From the NCBI GenBank assembly GCA_964559825.1, contig CAZLJK010000003.1, positions 74,858 through 138,857 of the forward strand: DNA of 64,000 nucleotides. Reading direction: 5' to 3'. Positions 6,856 through 57,255 of the stretch are shown piece by piece. Both the position numbers and the translations under genes were made by a program. Each line of letters opens with the position of its first letter. The first letter of the stretch is position 1. The stretch is from an uncultured Sulfuricella sp. (GTDB lineage: Bacteria; Pseudomonadota; Gammaproteobacteria; Burkholderiales; Sulfuricellaceae). Under the pieces are notes generated by a model, which did no database searches, had not been told where the DNA came from, and worked only from the letters and a program-made list of their open reading frames with translations.

Positions 6856-8553
6856 ATGGACAAGCCACTCAATATTCTCGTCGTTGACGATACCGAACTG
6901 AATCTGGCGCTGATCAGCACTTTCATCTCCAGGCTTGGCCATACCGCGATGCTGGCGAGAAATGGCCAGGAAGCCGTCGATTTGTATCTCGAATCATCGC
7001 CGGACATGATCTTGATGGATGTCATGATGCCGGTCATGGATGGCTACCAGGCAACGGCCGAAATCAGAAAGCTGGCCGGAAACAAATGGGTGCCGGTAAT
7101 CTTCCTCAGCGCAAAAGCCCAGGACAGCGATCTGGTCAAGGGACTGCAAGCCGGGGGCGACGATTACCTGACCAAACCCATCAACCTGCAGATTCTGCAA
7201 GCCAAGATCAAGGCCATGCAACGCATCGCGGTGATGCAGCGCGAACTCGCTGAAAAGGCCGAACAACTGGCGCGCTACCACGAAGAAAACGAACGCGAGC
7301 AAAACCTGGCCAAACACCTGCTGGAAAGGATCATTCAAGCCCACAAGCCGAATGACCCGATGGTTGAGCGCCTGGTTCTTCCGGCCACTCGCTTCAGCGG
7401 CGACATCATCGCCACCGAGTTCACGCCCGACCACATATTGCACGTCATCCTGGCCGATAGCGCCGGCCACGGCCTGTCCGCCGCGCTGAATGTGCTGCCG
7501 GTGGTCGAGGTGTTTTACGGCATGACGAAAAAGGGCTACAGCCTTTCCACCATCGTCAGGGAACTCAACAGCAAGATCAAACAGCTCATGCCGACGGAAC
7601 GCTTTGTCGCCGCCGCGCTGGCCGCCATCAATTTTTCAGAACGCACCATCGAGATCTGGAACGGCGGCATGCCGACCGCCTATTTTGTTGACGATCAGGG
7701 CGAAATCAAGCGGGAATGGCGGGCGTCGCACCCGCCGATGGGGATCATGAGCGACACGGACTTCCTTTCAAAAACGGAGACTTTTCACTGGAATGAACCA
7801 GGACGTTTATTTCTTTACTCGGATGGGCTGGTCGAGGCCGAAAATGAGGTCGGCGAACGCTTCGGCAGCGACCGCGTCCGGCAGGCGCTCAAGGAAAAGT
7901 GCGACCAGGGACAATTCTGGTATCTGATCGCTGAAGCGAACAAATTCATGGGCCTGGATAGCGCGACGGATGACATCTCCATTGCCGCCATCCGCTGCCC
8001 GATGGCGCCTGTAGGCGAAGGCGTCATTCATGCCGAGCCGGCATTGGTGCCCCCGGTCGAACCCAGCGAATCCAGGCTGACCGTCAAGCTCAGCCCACCG
8101 GAACTCAAGTCCTTCGATGTGCTGCCATGGCTGGTCAACTGGCTGAATCAGTTGCGCTTTAGCCAGAGGCAGTGTCAGGAAATGTTCCTGATTCTTTCCG
8201 AGCTTTACAACAATGCACTGGATCATGGCGTGTTGGCCCTGGATTCCAGGCTGAAACATCAAGCAGACGGTTTCGGCCACTACCTCGACATGCGCGAGGA
8301 ACGCCTGGTCGGACTGCAACATGGATCCATCGAAATCGAACTGGAACGAGTGCAGGAAAGCCAGGTTCCCTACCTGAAGTTGCGGGTCATGGACAGCGGC
8401 AAAGGATTTCCCGTCGATTCAATACTGAGCGCGGATATCTCATCCAGCACCAGACCCGCTGGGCGCGGCATCGTGCTGGTCAAAACAATGTGTGCCGAGG
8501 TGAAATATCAGGGTTGCGGCAATGAAGTGACCGCGCTATACCGTCTGCAATAA
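6856..8553 (+). CDS. REC + PP2C (SpoIIE) + GHKL kinase fusion (CrsR/HsbR-like)
   Basis: REC (ILVVDD...DMILMDVMMP...KP), PP2C (LADSAGHG, YSDGL, DDIS), C-terminal HATPase (ELYNNALDHG, DSGKGF, GRGIVL). Confidence 0.9.
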   Translation: MDKPLNILVVDDTELNLALISTFISRLGHTAMLARNGQEAVDLYLESSPDMILMDVMMPVMDGYQATAEIRKLAGNKWVPVIFLSAKAQDSDLVKGLQAGGDDYLTKPINLQILQAKIKAMQRIAVMQRELAEKAEQLARYHEENEREQNLAKHLLERIIQAHKPNDPMVERLVLPATRFSGDIIATEFTPDHILHVILADSAGHGLSAALNVLPVVEVFYGMTKKGYSLSTIVRELNSKIKQLMPTERFVAAALAAINFSERTIEIWNGGMPTAYFVDDQGEIKREWRASHPPMGIMSDTDFLSKTETFHWNEPGRLFLYSDGLVEAENEVGERFGSDRVRQALKEKCDQGQFWYLIAEANKFMGLDSATDDISIAAIRCPMAPVGEGVIHAEPALVPPVEPSESRLTVKLSPPELKSFDVLPWLVNWLNQLRFSQRQCQEMFLILSELYNNALDHGVLALDSRLKHQADGFGHYLDMREERLVGLQHGSIEIELERVQESQVPYLKLRVMDSGKGFPVDSILSADISSSTRPAGRGIVLVKTMCAEVKYQGCGNEVTALYRLQ

Positions 8554-45370: not shown

Positions 45371-45754
45371 ATGCTTACGAGAACGCCGGGAAGGTTTTTG
45401 TTTGTGGTCACAGCGTTTCTGGCGCTGCTGACCAGCCAGGTCTTCAGCGGGGAACTGGCACAACTGAAGGGCAGGATCGTCGGGGAGAAATGCGCGCAAC
45501 TTGGAAAAATCGGCGAGTGCTATCTCAAGTGGGCAAATCCGATGGTGTTCTGGACTGAAGAAGGGGACTACTACGCCATCGACCTGTCCGGCAAGAGTGG
45601 CGTGGCCGAGGAAAAATTCGACGAAGCATTCGGTCAGGAAGTCGAGCTCCAGGGTGAAATTCTGAAAAAAGGGGAGAAGGAGCAGATACGGGTTGCACAA
45701 CTCAAAATTCTGAAACCCGTTGCCGGCAAAGAATTTTTCAAGGGATGACTGTAA
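45371..45754 (+). CDS. Exported small protein, candidate selenoprotein ending KEFFKG-Sec-L (stop at 45748 if UGA is not recoded)
   Basis: Signal peptide; C-x8-C; TGA 45746-45748 followed by CTG TAA and a SECIS-like hairpin. The CDS itself is well supported; Sec read-through is inferred. Confidence 0.7.
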
Positions 45755-45790
45755 ACCCAGATCCCCGGGTGGGATCGAAAAGAGCAGTAA
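45746..45790 (+). promoter_or_regulatory. Putative bacterial SECIS element
   Basis: TGA + 11 nt (CTGTAAACCCA) + 17-nt hairpin GATCCC-CGGGT-GGGATC (45760-45776); lower stem ACTG(T) 45748-52 pairs with (G)CAGT 45784-88. Confidence 0.62.
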
Positions 45791-45837
45791 AAACAGAGCG
45801 TCTCGATATATTCAGCAGTTGGGTGGCAGGAGAAAAC

Positions 45838-46743
45838 ATGAGGTTTGGACATTGGCGATTCCAGCATTTTCTGCTTGCGGCCGTTCTTGCCCTGAGCGGC
45901 GCGGCAGCTTCGGCGGGGCAGAATTATGCCAGGCCCGAGCTTTTGATCGAAACCGAGGAGCTGGCGAAAATTCTCGGTCAGCCCAACGTCAGGCTAATTG
46001 ATGCCGCTGAAGGCGCTGGCTACCAGCGGGCGCATATTGCGGGCGCGGTCAATATTTACTATCTCGATCTCTCCAGGCTCGATGAGCGCAAGAAAAACGG
46101 TTTTCCCCTGAGCCAGGCTGAAGCGGAGAGGGTGTTCGGCGCTGCCGGGATCGATGCCGCCACGCAGGTCATCATCTACGATAGCGGTGAAGGAAATTCT
46201 GCATCGGGAGTGTGGTTTGTGCTCGACTTTTTCGGCCACAAAAACGTCAAGGTGCTAAATGGGGGGTTTCGCAAGTGGCTGAAGGAAAACCGCCTTGTAA
46301 CCCAGGACGTACCCGCACCCGAGAGGAAGAAATTTACCGCAAAGCCTGACGCCGGGCGCATCGTGACGCGAGCCTGGATGGAGAAAAATCTGCAAACCAA
46401 GGAAGCCATGGTGGTGGATACGCGCTCGTTCAATGAGTTTATTGGCAAGGACATGCGCCCAGGCGCCTCGCGTGGCGGACACATCCCCGGCGCGACCCAT
46501 CTCGAATGGACCCGGTTTTCAGACAAGCTGAATAGCTTCAAATCTGCCGAGCAAATCGAAAAGGCACTCAACCAGCGCGGCATCACCAGGGATACCAAGG
46601 TCGTCACCTATTGCCAGTCCGGCATTGGACGCTCTACCGATGTGGCTCTGGCGATGAAACTGATCGGCTACGACAATGTGGTCGAGTATTCAGGTTCATG
46701 GGAAGAGTGGTCGGTCGACCCGCGCTTACCTATCGAACGTTAA
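45838..46743 (+). CDS. Exported two-domain sulfurtransferase (rhodanese/MST family)
   Basis: AGGAG RBS + signal peptide; YQRAHIAGA, RGGHIPGA, VVTYCQSGIGRS, YSGSWEEW. Confidence 0.9.
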   Translation: MRFGHWRFQHFLLAAVLALSGAAASAGQNYARPELLIETEELAKILGQPNVRLIDAAEGAGYQRAHIAGAVNIYYLDLSRLDERKKNGFPLSQAEAERVFGAAGIDAATQVIIYDSGEGNSASGVWFVLDFFGHKNVKVLNGGFRKWLKENRLVTQDVPAPERKKFTAKPDAGRIVTRAWMEKNLQTKEAMVVDTRSFNEFIGKDMRPGASRGGHIPGATHLEWTRFSDKLNSFKSAEQIEKALNQRGITRDTKVVTYCQSGIGRSTDVALAMKLIGYDNVVEYSGSWEEWSVDPRLPIER

Positions 46744-46772
46744 CATGAAACTCGCGAAGCGAGCCTGCGTCC

Positions 46773-46806
46773 CTCTCTCCCTCTGGGAGAGAGTAAGGAG
46801 AGAGGG
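46773..46806. repeat. REP-like palindrome (same style as 10397)
   Basis: CTCTCTCCC-TCT-GGGAGAGAG followed by TAAGGAGAGAGGG. Confidence 0.6.
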
Positions 46807-46819
46807 CAACGGGCAAATC

Positions 46820-47344
46820 ATGAAGTATCCGGTTCACGCGTTGCTGGCGCTGTTCGTCCTGCTTATCCCGGTCATGGCTACTGCGGGAGCGCTCACGCCC
46901 GTCAAGGGTGAGATGCTGGCGAGCGACTTCGTCACGAGGGATTTGGCGGGGCGCACGGTACGCTTCAATACCTTTCAGGGCAAGGTGGTGGTACTCAATT
47001 TCTGGGCCACCTGGTGCTCGAATTGCCGCAAGGAGATGCCCTCGATGGAGGTGCTCCATCAGTCTTATAAAAACCAGGGGCTGGTGGTGCTGGCGGTGTC
47101 GCAGGATCAGGTGAGCGCGCGCACCGTGCAGGCCTATGTGGATGAACTCAAGCTGAGCTTCCCGGTGTGGCACGACCGAGACGGGCTGATCGGCAGGCAG
47201 TACGGCATCTCCGGCGTACCGGTGTCGTATCTGATCGGGGCGGACGGGCGCATCGCCTATCGTGTGACCGGCGATTACGACTGGTTCGGGGCGGAGGCGC
47301 GCGCGGCGGTAGAGACGCTGCTCGCGGCGCGCGCTTCACGTTAA
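46820..47344 (+). CDS. TlpA/ResA-like thiol-disulfide oxidoreductase
   Basis: Signal/TM segment; GKVVVLNFWATWCSNCRKEMP; GVPVSYLIG. Confidence 0.92.
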   Translation: MKYPVHALLALFVLLIPVMATAGALTPVKGEMLASDFVTRDLAGRTVRFNTFQGKVVVLNFWATWCSNCRKEMPSMEVLHQSYKNQGLVVLAVSQDQVSARTVQAYVDELKLSFPVWHDRDGLIGRQYGISGVPVSYLIGADGRIAYRVTGDYDWFGAEARAAVETLLAARASR

Positions 47345-47380: not shown

Positions 47381-50134
47381 ATGGTCGACAGACGTGATTT
47401 TCTGAAACTTTCCGGCACGGGCCTGTGCGCATTCGCGCTCGGCCTGTCCGAGGAATTGCAGGCGCGGATTCTCTCGGTGGATGATCCGCTGGTCTCCTAC
47501 CCCGACCGCTCGTGGGAGGATTTCTACCGCAAGGAGTTCGTCGGGACGCGCGGCAATGCTCAGGGTTTTGCCTTTCACTGCTCCAACTGCCAGGGCAACT
47601 GCGCTTTTCGCGTGTTCGCCAAGGATGGCGTCGTGACGCGCGAGGAACAGCTTGCGCAATACCCGCAGATCAGCCCGGACATTCCCGACCCCAATCCGCG
47701 CGGCTGCAACAAGGGAACCATCCACTCCCAGGCCATGTACGAGAAGGATCGGCTGCTCTACCCGCTCAAGCGTGCGGGCGCTCGCGGAGAGGGCAAGTGG
47801 CAGCGCATTTCCTGGGATCAGGCCATGGGTGAAATTGCGGAGAAGATCGTGGACACCCTGGCGGAACACGGTCCGGGCGGACTCCTGCTTTACGCCGGCA
47901 CCGGGATCGTGTCGCAGGGCCGGCGCGCGGGGCCGTTGCGCCTGGGGTCGCTGCTCGGTTCGACTCGCCTCTACCCATCCAGCGCGGTCGGCGACATGTT
48001 TACCGGCGCCGCGCTGGCCTATGGCATTCCCAACGTGGGCACTTCGCTCGATGCCTGGTTCGAGATGGACTACATCGTGTTGTGGGGCTTCAATCCCAAC
48101 GTGACCCGCATTCCGGACGCCCATTATCTTTGGGAAGCGAAGTGGCGCGGCGCCAAAATCGTGGTGATCTCGCCGGACTATAATCCCACCGCCATCCACG
48201 CCGACTGGTGGATACCCATCACGCCCGGCTCCGACAGTTTCCTCGCCATGTCGCTGGTGCATGTAGTGCTGAAAGAAAAGCTGTACAAGGAAGACTTTAT
48301 CCGCGAGCAGACCGACCTGCCCTTCCTGGTGCGCGAGGATACGGGCATGCTCCTGCGCCTCTCCGACCTGCGCAAGGATAGCAAGAACGATGTATTTTAT
48401 TGCTGGGACGAAGTGAGCGGTGCAGCCGTCGTCATGCCCGGTTCCCAGGGGCATTTCAGGAAGACCCTGCGGCTGGGCGCGATTCGTCCGGCGCTTACCG
48501 GTCGCTACGAGGTGAAGGGCCACGACGGCAAGATGATCCCGGTCACCACCGCGTTCGAAAAAGTACGCGCCGAAGCGGAAAAATACTCACCCGAGAAAAC
48601 GCAGGCGCAGACCGGCATTTCCCCTGCGCTGGTGACCAAGCTGGCACGCGAATATGCCGCGGCGCATGACCCCGGCCTCACCATCGGCTTCTCGCTGCAT
48701 AAGTACGCCTGGGGCATACTCACCTGCTGGGCGCAAGCCCTGTTTTGCGCGCTCACCGGCCATGACGCGGTGGACACCGAGCATCAGTGGAGCCTGGGCG
48801 GCCTCGGGCCAATGACCGCGCCTAAACCCGCGCGCTTCGAATCCGGGTTTCTGGGCGAGTGGTTTTCGGGGCGCATGTGGGAGACTTTCGAGCGTCACTA
48901 CGCCGGGGAAGAATTCAAGCAGCGCACCGGCATCACACCGGACGATCTGGTGAAACTGGCCGAGCGCTCGCGCGATGACAAGTGGCACACCAATTATGTC
49001 GAACCGAAAATCCGCATCCTGTTCGGCGACAATATTTTCCGCCGTAACAAGTCCTCGGAGCATTACCGCAAGACCGTGCTGGATGCGACCGAACTTTACG
49101 TCAACGTCAACTTTCGTATGGATTCCTCGGCGGAATACGCCGACTACGTGCTGCCCGCCATCAGCCACTACGAAGGCTGGGACATACGCGGCGAGGTCGG
49201 TTATCACCGTTACGCCAATCTGACCGTGCCGCCAAAGGATTTGAAGCCGGTCGGCGAGACCAAGCCGGAGTGGGAGATATGCCGACTGCTGGCCGAACAT
49301 ATCGAGGCGAAAGCGAAGCTGCGGGGTCTCGGCCAGATCAAGGACCCGCTTTTCACCATGAAGAAGGATGGCAAGGACATCCCGATCACGCGCGATCTCG
49401 ATACGCTGGTTTTCGATTTCACCATGCAGGGCAAGGTCAACACCGACAAGGATGTGGTGAAGTGGCAGATCGAGAATGTCCCCGCTTTCCAGCCATGGAA
49501 ATTCGAGGATGCGATCGAGCGCGGCTTTCTCGTACTTAACAACAGCGCCGGTCTGACCTCGCCCCTGTATGCCGACAAGCCTTACCGTTCGTTCGAGGAG
49601 CAATTCCACCTCAAGCGCCCCTACCCGACGCTCTCCGGTCGCCAGCAGTTCTACATCGACCAGGAAACATTCGCCAAACTCGGTTGCAGCGTGCCCACGG
49701 CGCGGGAAGGACTGCACCCCTCGCGCTTCCCGCTCAAGTTTTATTCGCCGCATGCGCGCTGGGGCATTCACTCCACCTGGCGCAGCAACAAATACATGCT
49801 GCGCATGCAGCGGGGCGTGCCCCATCTCAACCTCAATCCGCAGGATGCCACCCAGCGCGGCATCCAGGATGGCGACACGGTGCGCGTTTTCAATGATATC
49901 GGCGAATTCCGGGCGATGGCCAGGATCATGCCCAGCCTGCAACCCGGCACGCTCATGATGGATCATGCCTGGGAGCCGCATCAGTTCCTCAAACGCATGG
50001 GCATGGATGCGCCGGTCGCCGGGTTGCTCTCTCCGCTCGAGCTTGCGGGCGGCTGGGGTCATCTCAAATTCGGCGCGGAATGGGACGGTAACCAGCTTGC
50101 CCACGAATCCACTGTTGACGTAGCGAAAGTCTGA
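47381..50134 (+). CDS. DMSO reductase family type II molybdoenzyme, alpha subunit (Tat-exported)
   Basis: DRRDFLK Tat motif; FS0 motif HCSNCQGNC...PRGCNKG; RLLYPLKRAGARGEGKWQRISWDQA; candidate Asp ligand in SAVGDMFTG; C-terminal SPHARWGIHSTW. Confidence 0.93.
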   Translation: MVDRRDFLKLSGTGLCAFALGLSEELQARILSVDDPLVSYPDRSWEDFYRKEFVGTRGNAQGFAFHCSNCQGNCAFRVFAKDGVVTREEQLAQYPQISPDIPDPNPRGCNKGTIHSQAMYEKDRLLYPLKRAGARGEGKWQRISWDQAMGEIAEKIVDTLAEHGPGGLLLYAGTGIVSQGRRAGPLRLGSLLGSTRLYPSSAVGDMFTGAALAYGIPNVGTSLDAWFEMDYIVLWGFNPNVTRIPDAHYLWEAKWRGAKIVVISPDYNPTAIHADWWIPITPGSDSFLAMSLVHVVLKEKLYKEDFIREQTDLPFLVREDTGMLLRLSDLRKDSKNDVFYCWDEVSGAAVVMPGSQGHFRKTLRLGAIRPALTGRYEVKGHDGKMIPVTTAFEKVRAEAEKYSPEKTQAQTGISPALVTKLAREYAAAHDPGLTIGFSLHKYAWGILTCWAQALFCALTGHDAVDTEHQWSLGGLGPMTAPKPARFESGFLGEWFSGRMWETFERHYAGEEFKQRTGITPDDLVKLAERSRDDKWHTNYVEPKIRILFGDNIFRRNKSSEHYRKTVLDATELYVNVNFRMDSSAEYADYVLPAISHYEGWDIRGEVGYHRYANLTVPPKDLKPVGETKPEWEICRLLAEHIEAKAKLRGLGQIKDPLFTMKKDGKDIPITRDLDTLVFDFTMQGKVNTDKDVVKWQIENVPAFQPWKFEDAIERGFLVLNNSAGLTSPLYADKPYRSFEEQFHLKRPYPTLSGRQQFYIDQETFAKLGCSVPTAREGLHPSRFPLKFYSPHARWGIHSTWRSNKYMLRMQRGVPHLNLNPQDATQRGIQDGDTVRVFNDIGEFRAMARIMPSLQPGTLMMDHAWEPHQFLKRMGMDAPVAGLLSPLELAGGWGHLKFGAEWDGNQLAHESTVDVAKV

Positions 50135-50144
50135 GGAAGAAGAA

Positions 50145-51305
50145 ATGTCGAAACGACAACTAGCCATGGTGATGGATCTCAACAAGTGCATCGGTTGCCA
50201 GACCTGCACCTCGGCCTGCAAGACCCAATGGACCAACCGCAACGGGCGCGAATACATGTACTGGAACAATGTCGAGACCCGTCCGGGCCAAGGCTATCCG
50301 CGCAAGTGGGAGGAAGCGGGCGGGGGTTTCGACGCCGCCGGGCACTTGAAACCCGGGCGCATCCCTGATCTGCGGCGCGACTACGGTGCGGCGTTCGACA
50401 TGAACTACCTGGAAGCGCTCAATCCTCGCGGACATGACCAGCCTCCCTCCTTCGACGGCGCGGAACACCCGCATCTGGCGCCCGTGGAGATGCCGGTGAA
50501 CGGCCCCAACTGGGACGAGGATCAGGGCGCGGGCGTATACCCTAACAGCTATCATTTTTACCTGCCGCGCATTTGCAATCACTGCACCCATCCGGCCTGC
50601 GTTGCGGCCTGTCCGCGCAAGGCGATCTACAAGCGCGAGGAGGACGGCATCGTGCTCGTCGATCAGTCGCGCTGCCGTGGTTACCAGCATTGTGTCGAGG
50701 CCTGTCCATACAAGAAGATCTATTTCAATCCGACCTTCAAGCGTTCGGAGAAGTGCATTTTCTGCTTCCCGCGCATCGAGCAGGGATTGCCGCCGGCATG
50801 CGCGCAGCAGTGCGTGGGGCGGATTCGCTTCGTCGGCTACCTCGACGACGTGGAAAGCCCGGTGTACAAACTGGTGGAAAAATGGAAAGTGGCGCTGCCG
50901 CTACACGCCGAGTTCGGCACCCAGCCGAATGTGTACTACGTCCCGCCCCTGTCGCCGTCGAGCTACGATGCCGAGGGCAATCTGACGGGCGAGCGGCGCA
51001 TCCCGGATGAAGTCCTGGTCAATTTTTTCGGGCCGCGCGTGCCGGAAGTGCTGATGCTGCTGGAGCAGGAGCGGGAAAAAAAGCGCCGGGGCGAAAAATC
51101 CGAGCTCATGGAGACGCTCATTGCCTATCGCCATGAGGAGATGTTCAAGCTCGATGCCGCGTATTACCAGAAGGCCAAGGCGGCTCCCGCGCCCAGGAGT
51201 CAACGGGGCATTCCTGTCCTGGCATGGGAAGACCGGGAGGGCTGGGAAGAATTCAGAAAAACGCGCGAAATCGCCGCTGGCAATTTTCCGGGAGAGGTGG
51301 CATGA
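50145..51305 (+). CDS. DMSO reductase family type II, iron-sulfur beta subunit (NarH/EbdB/SerB-like)
   Basis: DLNKCIGCQTCTSACK, YLPRICNHCTHPACVAACP, CRGYQHCVEACPYKK, KCIFCFPR...CAQQCVGRIR. Confidence 0.95.
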   Translation: MSKRQLAMVMDLNKCIGCQTCTSACKTQWTNRNGREYMYWNNVETRPGQGYPRKWEEAGGGFDAAGHLKPGRIPDLRRDYGAAFDMNYLEALNPRGHDQPPSFDGAEHPHLAPVEMPVNGPNWDEDQGAGVYPNSYHFYLPRICNHCTHPACVAACPRKAIYKREEDGIVLVDQSRCRGYQHCVEACPYKKIYFNPTFKRSEKCIFCFPRIEQGLPPACAQQCVGRIRFVGYLDDVESPVYKLVEKWKVALPLHAEFGTQPNVYYVPPLSPSSYDAEGNLTGERRIPDEVLVNFFGPRVPEVLMLLEQEREKKRRGEKSELMETLIAYRHEEMFKLDAAYYQKAKAAPAPRSQRGIPVLAWEDREGWEEFRKTREIAAGNFPGEVA

Positions 51306-52360
51306 AGCGGACTGCGCAACGATTCGGGTGGCTGTGGGCCGCGCTGGCCGTGGCGCTGGCGATGAATTTCCCCTTTGCGTCGGCCGGGGACGCGGCGACT
51401 TTCATCAGCGCAAAAAAGAGCGGAGCCGAGCCGCCACTTGACCCGCTGGATCCGGCCTGGGAGAAGCTTGATCCGACCCCGGTCGCGCTCTACCCGCAGG
51501 CTAGCATTGCACCGGGATCTGATCAAGATGGCGTGTTGTACGCCAGGGTGCGCGCGCTTTACAGCGGCAAAACCCTGGCCCTGCACGTCGAGTGGCCCGA
51601 TGCCAAGCCATCGGCGACCCGCTCAATCGGCGAGTTTGCCGACGGTATCGCGGTGCAATGGCCGCTACGCTATGGTTCTGGCGTGAGTTTGCCTTATGTC
51701 GGCATGGGTCATGGCGGCGTAGCGGCGGCGCTGTGGCTATGGCGCGCGGACGGTTCCGTGGAGACGCTCGCGGCGGAAGGCTTTGGCACCCTGACGGCGC
51801 AACCGTCCGGTGGCGTAAAAGCCAGCGGGGCGTGGCGTGACGGCAAGTGGCAGGTCGTCTTCACGCGCTCCACCGCTCCCTCGGCGAACGGGCAGCATGT
51901 CCGTTTCGACCCCGCGAAACAGGGGATCGTGCCCTTGGCGCTGGCGCTGTGGAGCGGAGAGGCGCAGGAACGCGACGGCAAGAAGCGCCTGTCCGCCTGG
52001 CAGGCTTTGCGTTTTGAGAAGGCTGCCGCGAACGAGGCTTATCTCAGGTCGTTTGCCGCTGTGGCAAACGGCAATGCCGAAAATGGCAAGCGGCTGATGG
52101 CGGAAAAGGGCTGCGTCGGCTGCCACAGCTTTCCGGGCAATGCCGCGCAGCCGACGGTGGGTCCGAACCTCACTTACGTCGGCGGCATTCATCATGCCGA
52201 TTACCTGCTCGAATCGATCACAAACCCGTCCCTCATCATTGTCCCTGGCAAGACCTATTCCACGGCGCAGAATGGCAAGCGGGTTTCGCTGATGCCGCCG
52301 TTTCAGGGCACGAAACAGGAAAGGCAGGATATTGCCGCGTTTCTCCAGATGCTACGGTGA
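51302..52360 (+). CDS. Type II gamma subunit (EbdC-like heme b domain) fused to a C-terminal cytochrome c
   Basis: Signal peptide; VRALYSG.TLALHVEWPD, FADGIAVQWP, YVGMG, AEGFGTL, W.DGKWQVVFTR, KKRLSAW; then GCVGCH CxxCH and SLMPPF. Confidence 0.85.
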   Translation: MKRTAQRFGWLWAALAVALAMNFPFASAGDAATFISAKKSGAEPPLDPLDPAWEKLDPTPVALYPQASIAPGSDQDGVLYARVRALYSGKTLALHVEWPDAKPSATRSIGEFADGIAVQWPLRYGSGVSLPYVGMGHGGVAAALWLWRADGSVETLAAEGFGTLTAQPSGGVKASGAWRDGKWQVVFTRSTAPSANGQHVRFDPAKQGIVPLALALWSGEAQERDGKKRLSAWQALRFEKAAANEAYLRSFAAVANGNAENGKRLMAEKGCVGCHSFPGNAAQPTVGPNLTYVGGIHHADYLLESITNPSLIIVPGKTYSTAQNGKRVSLMPPFQGTKQERQDIAAFLQMLR

Positions 52361-52407: not shown

Positions 52408-52638
52408 ATGTGGGGCTATTATGGCAATTATGGTTGGGGGAGCGGCGGCATGGTGCCTATGCTGCTGATGTGGACGGTGATTATTCTGGTTATCGCGGTA
52501 CTGGCGAAGTGGATATTCGGGAAGCCGACCGAAACCACGCATGGCAAGACTGCGCTCGAAATTCTCAAAGAGCGTTATGCGCGGGGTGAGATCGATCGTG
52601 AGGAATTTGATCAAAAGAGGCGGGATATTGGGGGCTGA
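52408..52638 (+). CDS. Small membrane protein with a SHOCT domain
   Basis: MWGYYG..GGM, one TM segment, ALEILKERYARGEIDREEF. Confidence 0.88.
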   Translation: MWGYYGNYGWGSGGMVPMLLMWTVIILVIAVLAKWIFGKPTETTHGKTALEILKERYARGEIDREEFDQKRRDIGG

Positions 52639-52642
52639 GCCC

Positions 52643-54036
52643 ATGGTGAATACTGAATCCTTGCGGCGCCTTGCGGCGCTGCCCGCAGTGTATGAAGTTC
52701 TCGCTCACCCGCAGATTGAGGCGCTTGCGGAAAATATCGACCACGACCTGCTGGTGACCGGGATACAGTCTAGTCTGGCGCTCCACCGCGAGGCGCTGCG
52801 GGCTGATCCACAGCATCGTTCGCCCAGCGCGGATGAACTCGCGCAGGAAGTCGCGCTGAAGGTGGCAAAATGGCATCAGCCCGGACTCGTGCCGGTCATC
52901 AATCTCACCGGTACGCTGCTGCACACCAACCTCGGACGTGCGCCGCTCTCGGCGGAGGCGGTAGCGACGCTGGTGCGCGCCGCAGGCACGGTGAATCTCG
53001 AGTATGACCTCGTTGCCGGCAAGCGCGGCGAGCGCGATACGCAAGTGGAAGCGCTGCTGACCCGCCTGACCGGCGCCGAAGCCGCGACCGTGGTCAACAA
53101 CAATGCCGCAGCTTTGTATCTCGCGCTCAATACGTTGGCCAACAAGCGCCGTGTGGTGGTGAGCCGGGGCGAACTGGTGGAAATCGGCGACAGTTTCCGC
53201 GTGCCGGACATCATCCGGGCCAGCGGTTGCCGGCTGATGGAAGTCGGCACTACCAACCGCACCCACCTCGCCGACTACCGGCAGGCACTGGATGAAGGTG
53301 GTACTTTGCTGCTCAAGGTGCATACCAGCAACTACCGCGTGGTGGGGTTCACCAGCGAAGTGCCGCTGGTCGATCTGGTGAAGCTTGGCAGGGAGAGAAA
53401 TATTCCGGTGGTGGTGGATCTGGGTAGCGGGGCGCTGGTGGATGTGAGTCGCTATGGGGTTCTTGGAGAGCCTTTGGTACAGGATGCGGTGCGCGCCGGG
53501 GCGGACCTGGTGACCTTCAGCGGCGACAAGCTGTTGGGCGGCCCGCAGGCCGGGGTGATGGTCGGGCGCACGCCTTTTATCAAGCGTGTCCGGCGTAATC
53601 CCATGAAGCGCGCGCTGCGTTGCGACAAGCTTGTTCTGGGCGCGCTCGACGCGACCCTGGCCGCCTATCTCTCGCCGCAGACGCTGGAGCGGAAACTTCC
53701 CACCTACCGCATGCTGTCGCGTAGCCTGGATGAGATCGAAGCGCTGGCGCGGCAGGTGCAACCCCATCTCGAACGCTGGGCGCAGGGACGCGCGCGAGCC
53801 GAACTGGTTCCCACGCGCGCGCAAGTGGGCAGCGGTGCTGCGCCGGATGCCACGCTCCCGTCGCTGGCTTTTGCGCTCACGCCGCTGAAGGGGGTTTCGG
53901 CAGCGCAGCTCGCGCGCGCCCTGCGCCAGCTCTCGCCGCCGGTAATCGGGCGCCTGCACGACGGCGGACTACTGCTCGACCTGCGCGCTCTGCTCGATGC
54001 CGAGCCGCTCATCCGTGCATTCAATGGGACTCTGCC

Positions 54037-54040
<4 letters not shown>
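52643..54040 (+). CDS. selA: L-seryl-tRNA(Sec) selenium transferase
   Basis: PVINLTGTLLHTNLGRAPL, VNNNAAA, SRGELVEIG, EVGTTNRTH, PLP lysine motif FSGDKLLGGPQAG. Confidence 0.96.
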
Positions 54041-55943
<1,903 letters not shown>

Positions 55944-55947
<4 letters not shown>

Positions 55948-56453
55948 ACAGGATACTCAAAGGACTGGCCGTCCTGCTGGTGTTTTTTCCGACACTGCTT
56001 CTGGCTACGCCGGCTAAGGAGTCACTCCTCGATCTGGAGGGGCAGCCCCATACGCTCGACGAATATACGGGGCGGGGGAAATGGCTGGTAGTCACGGTCT
56101 GGGCTTCCGATTGCGCGGTGTGCAACCGGGAAATCCACGAGTTGATGGTTTTTCATCAGGCGCACCGGGAAACGGATGCCAGCGTGCTCGGTATTTCAGT
56201 GGATGGGCTTGGCGGCAGGCAAAACGCGTTGGCATTCATCAAACGGCACGGGGTAAACTTCCCCAATCTGCTGGATGATGGAAGCGCATTCAAGGCGATT
56301 TATCTGCGCGCTACCGCTCGCCCCTGGTTCGGAGGGACGCCCATGAACCTGGTCTATGCGCCTTCCGGGGAACTGCTGGCGCGACGCATCGGCCCGTTGG
56401 GCAAGGCCGAACTCGAGGCGTTCATCAAGCAGGCAGGAGAACGAAAGCAATAG
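55944..56453 (+). CDS. TlpA-like exported thiol-disulfide oxidoreductase
   Basis: Signal peptide; GKWLVVTVWASDCAVCNRE; GGTPMNLVY. Confidence 0.88.
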
Positions 56454-56469: not shown

Positions 56470-56566
56470 GGAGAGGATGATCGTCCGGTTGGCATCCGCG
56501 GGCTTCAAACCCGTTGGGAGGCAGGTTTCCTGTCTCTGGTAGGTTCGACTCCTACCCTCTCCACCA
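56470..56566 (+). tRNA. selC: tRNA-Sec (UCA), apparent 7/5 (12-bp) type
   Basis: Anticodon loop CTTCAAA; 9-bp variable arm; GTAGG-TTCGACT-CCTAC T-arm; GGAGAGG/CCTCTCC acceptor stem; ends ACCA; lies next to selAB. Confidence 0.92.
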
Positions 56567-56588: not shown

Positions 56589-56939
56589 ATGAAAACTCTT
56601 TTCATACTCAACGATCCGCCCTACGGCACAGAGCGCAGCTACAACGGCTTCCGCCTGGCGCGGGCGCTGGCGAAGCACGAGGACAACGAAATCCGCGTGT
56701 TCCTGCTGGGCGATGCGGCCCTGTGTGCCAAGGCGGGGCAGAAGGTGCCGGAAGGCTATTACAACATCGAATTCTTCGCTCAGAGCATTTTGAAGCGTGG
56801 CGGCGAAATCGGCGTGTGCGGGGTATGCATGGAAGCGCGGGGTCTGAAAGACGAGGAACTCATCCCCGGTTGTCAGCACAGCACGCTGGAGCACCTGGCC
56901 GAATGGACCATGTGGGCGGAGAAAGTGCTCACTTTCTGA
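56589..56939 (+). CDS. DsrE/YchN-family sulfur relay protein
   Basis: ILNDPPYGTERSYNGFRLA, FLLGDAA, VCGVCMEARG. Confidence 0.9.
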   Translation: MKTLFILNDPPYGTERSYNGFRLARALAKHEDNEIRVFLLGDAALCAKAGQKVPEGYYNIEFFAQSILKRGGEIGVCGVCMEARGLKDEELIPGCQHSTLEHLAEWTMWAEKVLTF

Positions 56940-57255
56940 TTCTGGAAGCCGGCCCGGTATTTCATGCAAAGAAGGGTCCCCGGTTCTGGAAGTTTCCGCC
57001 ATGCGAGCCACCTGGGTTCGCAGGAGGCCTTATAGTTAGGAGCGCCGCCCTCGGCGCGAATTCGGCCACAAATCGCGGCGATGGCCAATCCATTCTCAAC
57101 CCGATTCGCCCGGTTCAGCGACCGGAGCGGCGTACCCTATCGCGCGATTTTAGTCCTGGCAAATAGTACAAATGGACGTTTTCAAGCACGCGCATGTTCA
57201 CTACACTGGCTCTACGGCAATACCCCCAGGCAAACACCAACATAAGGGAGTCAAC

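Follow-up and report, generated by a model that had tools for sequence, protein, structure and literature searches.

Selenocysteine tRNAs (tRNA-Sec) with a 12-bp helix were described in Epsilonproteobacteria (Cravedi et al. 2015, PMC4607533), and a Cloacimonetes-type 12-bp tRNA-Sec (Mukai et al. 2016) as well as 47 further cases with a 7/5 acceptor/T arrangement, from Gammaproteobacteria, Alphaproteobacteria, Clostridiales and others, have been reported since (Santesmasses et al. 2017, PMC5330540). These 7/5 tRNA-Secs are usually found in selABC operons and carry a bulge at position 43a and sometimes at 13a; one genome, that of Photobacterium profundum 3TCK, has two Sec operons (PMC5330540). 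The discriminator base G73 was stressed as conserved (PMC5330540), and the supplement lists five bacterial exceptions without explanation. Two of the five are Sulfurimonas tRNA-Secs with discriminator A followed by CCA, in genomes where selA and selB are present (Secmarker S1 Text, PMC5330540).

The stretch of DNA analysed here (the window, 64,000 nucleotides) comes from an uncultured Sulfuricella sp. and contains a genuine tRNA-Sec gene (selC) with a UCA anticodon and, as an earlier note had read from the letters, a 7/5 acceptor/T helix, A73 and an encoded CCA (Table 1). ARAGORN called a tRNA-SeC (tca) at these positions, and the covariance-model alignment that the note had proposed gave a score of 54.8 bits for Rfam RF01852, above the gathering score of 47. 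The 3' half consists, in order, of the T-loop UUCGACU, CCUAC, CCUCUCC, A and CCA. The T-stem GUAGG/CCUAC and the acceptor GGAGAGG/CCUCUCC add up to 12 bp with no nucleotide between the two helices, and an eighth acceptor pair would be a mismatch of A8 with C. The D-arm had been described as imperfect, and its stem does carry a bulged C; the anticodon stem gains a sixth pair, C:G, if one U is bulged. Compared with canonical tRNA-Sec (E. coli selC; the Sulfuricella loci L014-L017), the gene is alike in its UCA anticodon, 6-bp D-stem, long variable arm, encoded CCA and linkage to selA and selB, both of which lie directly upstream. The canonical molecule differs in having an 8-bp acceptor (13-bp helix) and G73, neither of which is present here, and in this genus its gene adjoins a Sec-containing fdnG (U198). 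The selD gene is intact and lies elsewhere in the genome; in relatives it is inside the locus.

Table 1. Features of the sel island (window coordinates) and of the Sec YedE-like gene in relatives (coordinates in the loci named)
Feature	Position	Strand	Remarks
Double-rhodanese protein	45745-46743	+	precedes molybdoenzyme, as in related loci
TlpA-like thioredoxin protein	46676-47344	+	motif WCSNC; precedes molybdoenzyme, as in related loci
Type II DMSO-reductase-family molybdoenzyme	47381-52360	+	alpha 47381-50134, beta 50145-51305, gamma ~51224-52360
Small SHOCT-domain membrane protein	52408-52638	+	immediately upstream of selA
selA	52643-54040	+	465 aa, divergent; TIGR00474 at 551 bits
selB	54037-55947	+	636 aa, distinct SelB clade; TIGR00475, SelB-wing_3, tree placement
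Secreted AhpC/TSA-type thioredoxin-like protein	55944-56453	+	motif CAVC; conserved between selB and selC
tRNA-Sec (selC)	56470-56566	+	97 nt; ARAGORN, Rfam RF01852, fold by alignment
selC acceptor, 5' strand	56470-56476	+	
selC linker AU			between acceptor 5' strand and D-arm
selC D-arm	56479-56496	+	6 bp, bulged C, 5-nt loop
selC anticodon arm	56497-56516	+	anticodon TCA 56505-56507, bulged U
selC variable arm	56517-56537	+	hairpin of 9 bp
selC T-arm	56539-56555	+	5 bp
selC acceptor, 3' strand	56556-56562	+	
selC discriminator A73	56563	+	
selC encoded CCA	56564-56566	+	
DsrE-family protein	56589-56939	+	start 22 nt past tRNA, own ribosome-binding site
Sec YedE-like gene	L257:566-1675		
Sec YedE-like gene	L252:1772-2875		
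Sec YedE-like gene	L260 (G050:C47:3281-4213)	-	

The fold was tested on 10 distinct tRNA-Sec sequences of the clade to which the locus belongs (see below). The 7/5 cloverleaf was found to be 96.8% paired across these sequences, against 46-52% with slid partners, and compensatory changes occurred at 15 pairs in four helices, with changes on both sides. All seven acceptor pairs and all five T-stem pairs form in 10/10 sequences. The D-stem and variable-stem pairing is supported by compensatory changes, and the acceptor stem is invariant across the clade and gives no covariation signal either way. The C:G closing pair of the anticodon stem, with the U bulged, is present in all ten, and the D-stem bulge in nine.

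With respect to described systems, the locus is alike to the 7/5 class in its 12-bp geometry, its bulges and its selA-selB-selC operon, and the two Sec operons of P. profundum 3TCK have a parallel in a related Sulfuricella genome (G015). However, the reported class has a conserved G73 in place of A73, and its literature (PMC5330540, PMC4607533) describes no link to a distinct SelB clade or to a molybdoenzyme/sulfur-relay island. The tRNA-Secs of Sulfurimonas denitrificans and S. gotlandica share discriminator A, the encoded CCA, the presence of selA and selB and sulfur-oxidising hosts, but they have 13 nt from the T-loop to A73 (12 here) and a different acceptor sequence, and they belong to Campylobacterota. 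The selC* tRNA-Cys/tRNAReC, which occur with SelB* (Mukai et al. 2017, PMC5389517), are similar in their tRNA-Sec shape, the 12-bp helix, the changed discriminator and the possession of an own SelB copy; they are, however, 8/4 molecules with U73, Cys identity and no dedicated SelA, and the window tRNA, with 7/5, A73 and a co-encoded dedicated SelA, does not belong among them. Nor is it an allo-tRNA (8/4 or 9/3, with sense or other anticodons), being 7/5 with UCA.

The SelA and SelB encoded with the tRNA are 48% and 42% identical, respectively, to the canonical proteins of the genus. Over the first 80 residues, variant and canonical SelA are ~21% identical, as against ~33% between canonical SelAs, and a search of the variant SelA for PF12390, the Pfam N-terminal tRNA-binding domain, gave no match. 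SelB keeps the SECIS-binding winged helix (SelB-wing_3), and in a SelB tree it branched, with a long stem, outside the SelB clade of the Pseudomonadota, in which the canonical SelB of the genus lies. On searching a large protein collection, a compact clade of ~100 SelBs was found that are 52-65% identical to the window SelB, beyond which identity drops to 44% or less; a peptide-pattern locus search had put the nearest SelB relatives outside Sulfuricellaceae at 41%, which was an artefact of the patterns. Clade members carry the source names Sulfuritalea, Sulfuricaulis, Thiobacillus, Thioalkalivibrio denitrificans and 'Muproteobacteria'. Eight loci of the clade were fetched (L250-L257; among them loci of Sulfuritalea, Sulfuricaulis and T. 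denitrificans and metagenome contigs), and the molybdoenzyme adjoins the sel genes in seven of them within the fetched stretch. The neighbourhood shared by 7/8 loci comprises an ArsR-rhodanese regulator, rhodaneses, a thioredoxin-like protein, the molybdoenzyme, DsrE/TusA/SHOCT proteins, selA, selB, often selD, and selC. The 7/5 tRNA-Sec characterises a coherent SelB/SelA/tRNA lineage of sulfur-oxidising Proteobacteria, and this 12-bp form is not a scattered oddity. The lineage includes a sequenced strain, T. denitrificans.

Within the island, the true start of selA is the ATG at 52643 and not 52541, the longer ORF (from 52541) overlapping the SHOCT-domain gene with its good ribosome-binding site. 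The gap between the thioredoxin-like gene and the tRNA is 16 nt. The gamma subunit of the molybdoenzyme combines heme b and cytochrome c, and the nearest solved structure is that of the perchlorate reductase PcrA; a role of this enzyme in selenium or sulfur oxyanion handling would be a guess.

The tRNA-Secs of the clade share with the window tRNA the acceptor GGAGAGG/CCUCUCC, the 5-bp T-stem and the 12-nt 3' strand. At five of the more distant loci (L250, L251, L253, L255 and L256, with SelBs 52-65% identical) the tRNA ends in G73-CCA, and in the SelB clade A73 is restricted to loci whose SelB is at least 81% identical. Since the distant clade tRNAs are 7/5 with G73 and A73 occurs only among these close relatives, it was concluded that the 7/5 fold is ancestral to the SelB clade and that A73 is a single, recently derived G-to-A transition on the Sulfuricellaceae-type branch. 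The derived A73, in place of a near-universal G, is thus the sole rare element of the window tRNA-Sec, the 7/5 fold having been described already in 2015-2017. The view of the earlier note, a non-canonical and possibly orthogonal system, is supported in part: the co-encoded SelA and SelB are divergent, but the 7/5 geometry is an established class and ancestral in the clade, and A73 had been seen before in Sulfurimonas.

A scan of metagenomes for tRNAs with a UCA anticodon and an A-CCA end yielded at least 10 tRNA-Sec genes. Among them are an 8/5-A73 tRNA-Sec after selA-selB (L164) and a 7/5-A73 tRNA-Sec with the same acceptor and T-stem that adjoins only distantly related selA and selB (L166). 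On the basis of these genes, A73 is rare but recurrent and arose several times. In six of the metagenome loci (L164, L132, L140, L168, L185 and L195) the T-loop of the A73-CCA tRNA-Sec is 13 nt away from A73; several of these six are mismatched at the eighth acceptor pair, and L140 comes from a human-gut assembly. A literature search for experimental G73A tRNA-Sec returned nothing relevant. The SelB/tRNA lineage of the sulfur oxidisers represents a natural experiment on G73, regarded as the key serylation mark of tRNA-Sec, and on the 13-bp helix, regarded as the SelB mark.

The same 97 nt are present unchanged in two other species-level Sulfuricella genomes, G007 and G015, and slightly diverged copies were found in G050, a Sulfuricellaceae MAG of another genus (L028/L120), and on a metagenome contig (L254). 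In all, A73 occurs in five identical or near-identical sister copies from five other assemblies; the A-CCA end is retained, and the sequence diverges directly past CCA. The surrounding 10-17 kb are 84-94% identical to G007 and G015 at the nucleotide level, and the neighbouring genes have a dS of 0.36-0.46. Because not one of the 97 nt of the tRNA has changed at this level of divergence, it is under strong constraint, A73 and CCA included, and it can be neither a chance match nor an assembly error.

Given its fold, conservation, linkage to selA and selB, clade membership and the polarity of the G73-to-A73 change, we consider it probable that the gene specifies a working 7/5-A73 selenocysteine tRNA, in which case serylation, conversion to Sec and delivery would be expected to proceed as follows. 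The selC gene would be transcribed inside an operon selA-selB-trx-selC-dsrE; RNase P would cut at G1, and the encoded A73-CCA would form the 3' end. The single SerRS would charge the tRNA with serine by way of the long variable arm and the acceptor stem identical to that of tRNA-Ser, the co-encoded SelA would convert Ser to Sec, and the co-encoded SelB would deliver the product to UGA codons with a SECIS hairpin downstream. A73 itself is a derived substitution that became fixed in the Sulfuricellaceae-type branch and is tolerated by the system.

A tRNA-Sec is present in 14 of the 40 genomes of the family, four of which have the variant. Both forms occur in G015, the variant and a canonical 8/5-G73 tRNA-Sec lying on separate contigs. 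The canonical selA-selB-selC of G015 (L025, G015:C21:54400-74300) adjoins fdnG, which has one in-frame TGA (U198, motif NQARVUHGP), and the Sec-type fdnG was found in 3/3 canonical-bearing genomes tested and in 0/3 variant-only genomes. Together with the SelA comparison and the retained winged helix of SelB, this distribution fits the view that the variant SelA/SelB/tRNA and the canonical set are separate, co-evolved and possibly non-cross-reacting systems. A more far-reaching reading is that A73, the 7/5 helix and the co-evolved SelA/SelB would make up an insulated second Sec channel, which in G015 would run without cross-talk to the 8/5-G73 system; the canonical set would serve formate dehydrogenase and the variant a sulfur/selenium-trafficking island, with a YedE-type selenoprotein as its product or, in genomes that like this one show no known target, a selenoprotein of a so far unrecognised family. 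We regard this as unlikely. The co-occurrence in G015 makes cross-reactivity directly testable, and the variant set might supply parts for engineering selenoprotein expression.

Regarding the target, five different screens did not find a selenoprotein gene in this genome (G000). Negative results were obtained here by the FDH-N family search together with tblastn using the Sec-FdnG of G015, by the search for UGA read-through ORFs with coding-frame filters and redox motifs, and by the search for Cys-to-TGA pairs with self-tblastn. A scan of this genome for TGA codons followed by a SECIS-like hairpin gave no selenoprotein gene, and family searches for AhpC/TSA, rhodanese and Sulf_transp that read through stops gave no Sec form in it. 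A search for in-frame TGA in the island genes of this genome and of the sister genomes was likewise negative. The screens are blind to selenoprotein families that have neither a Cys paralogue nor a clade-type SECIS.

In relatives, the island includes a YedE/YeeE-like transporter gene in which an in-frame TGA takes the place of a conserved Cys, in the motif ALGGF-U-PGTCAAR. A GC-rich, SECIS-like hairpin (GCGGCC, a 5-nt loop, GGCCGC) starts ~12 nt past the UGA in L257, L252 and G050. The YeeE/YedE family is already listed among predicted prokaryotic selenoproteins (PMC13188914), and the Sec YedE-like transporter is likely to be the target of the system in the relatives. The sole tRNA-Sec of G050 is the A73 form and this genome has the Sec YedE-like gene, which makes the YedE UGA a plausible codon for the A73 tRNA in at least one genome. 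The Sec YedE-like gene is either split or missed by gene-calling programs. In two of the loci that carry it, L252 and L257 (a Sulfuritalea locus and a metagenome contig), selB follows the molybdoenzyme or SHOCT genes immediately, without an intervening selA, and a tRNA-Sec was not found within the fetched flanks of either. The Sec-YedE gene is absent from the genome of the window, where the Sulf_transp genes on contig C14 are Cys forms.

It was considered whether the Sec system of this genome might be a relic that has outlived its target gene, or might serve some use other than known selenoproteins. The missing selenoprotein gene, the absence of the clade's Sec-YedE and the absence of Sec-type FDH-N from all three variant-only genomes agree with such a loss. 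However, selA and selB have a dN/dS of 0.21 and no frameshifts, the tRNA is invariant in three genomes, and selD is intact, and we judge either possibility to be improbable.

The discriminator has to be weighed next. In E. coli, G73 is only a moderate determinant for tRNA-Ser, but it is the strongest serylation element of tRNA-Sec; it is also an antideterminant against LeuRS and TyrRS, for both of which A73 is a determinant (PMC9976931). Because of these roles of G73, its replacement by A73 is not obviously neutral, and it might lower or alter charging. In an extreme form, A73 would switch the identity of the tRNA, with charging by LeuRS or TyrRS or poor charging with Ser, and a residue other than Sec would be inserted, similar to selC* tRNA-Cys, where U73 goes with Cys. 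In line with this, LeuRS and TyrRS both use A73 on long-arm tRNAs, the antideterminant role of G73 applies to E. coli tRNA-Ser, and the acceptor is, but for a single pair, that of this genome's tRNA-Tyr. On the other hand, a dedicated SelA, an enzyme that requires Ser-tRNA as its substrate, is encoded alongside and evolves under purifying selection, the D-arm is of the Sec type and not of the Leu or Tyr type, the UCA anticodon lacks the G34/U35 used by TyrRS, and A73 tRNA-Sec genes recur beside selA and selB in unrelated lineages. Furthermore, two tRNA-Ser genes of this genome, tRNA-Ser(CGA) and tRNA-Ser(GGA), have exactly the acceptor GGAGAGG/CCUCUCC. An identity switch is very unlikely on this evidence. 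SerRS is encoded by one gene per genome, whatever the tRNA-Sec type, and a search for an extra or dedicated SerRS found none. That the window tRNA is still of the Ser/Sec kind is supported by the acceptor it shares with two tRNA-Ser genes, by the single SerRS of each genome and by the dedicated SelA encoded beside it.

The length of the acceptor was reconsidered in the same manner. The mature tRNA could retain nucleotide -1 paired with base 73, either without an encoded CCA or in the manner of tRNA-His with base 73 paired; an 8-bp stem of the first kind, starting at T56469 (U1-A72), had been thought the less likely fold in the earlier note. A U:A pair is possible where -1 is T, as in the window, G015 and L166, a C stands opposite G73 in L251 and L253, and the Rfam model favours an alignment beginning at -1 for L166. 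However, the -1:73 pair is possible in just 4/10 clade sequences. The base at -1 is T, T, C, C and C in the A73 copies and C, C, A, A and A in the G73 relatives, and the position evidently drifts, because the close relatives G007 and G015 have C and T, respectively. In addition, CCA directly follows the discriminator in every one of the 36 genuine tRNA genes of the genome. The 8-bp acceptor is rejected on the basis of the 4/10 count and the 36/36 encoded CCA, and retention of -1 in the mature tRNA is left as highly improbable, in agreement with the preference of the note for the 7-bp acceptor. An ordinary 8/5 tRNA-Sec that lost one base through an assembly or sequencing error, which the note had named as an outcome that would overturn its reading, has nothing in its favour except the unusual length and is practically out of the question, as the identical 12-nt 3' strand was found in ten independent assemblies and metagenome contigs.

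Some variation was also observed at the edges of the 7/5-A73 module. The SHOCT-domain gene occupies the same place in L253, L256 and L257. In G007 and G015, the corresponding position (window 52408-52640) holds a 141-aa gene with no in-frame TGA, and in L254 and L256 a 138-139-aa gene with a weak DrsE_2 match is found at the SHOCT position. Past dsrE, a GC-rich element of ~45 nt (window 57037-57085) is present, which is single-copy in this genome. In G015 it forms a direct repeat on both sides of the sel module (L024:2408-2449 and ~7520-7570), and it was also found at L023:6495-6539 and at L028:2372-2416, inverted in G050. A cassette boundary and a terminator-like element are possible readings of it.
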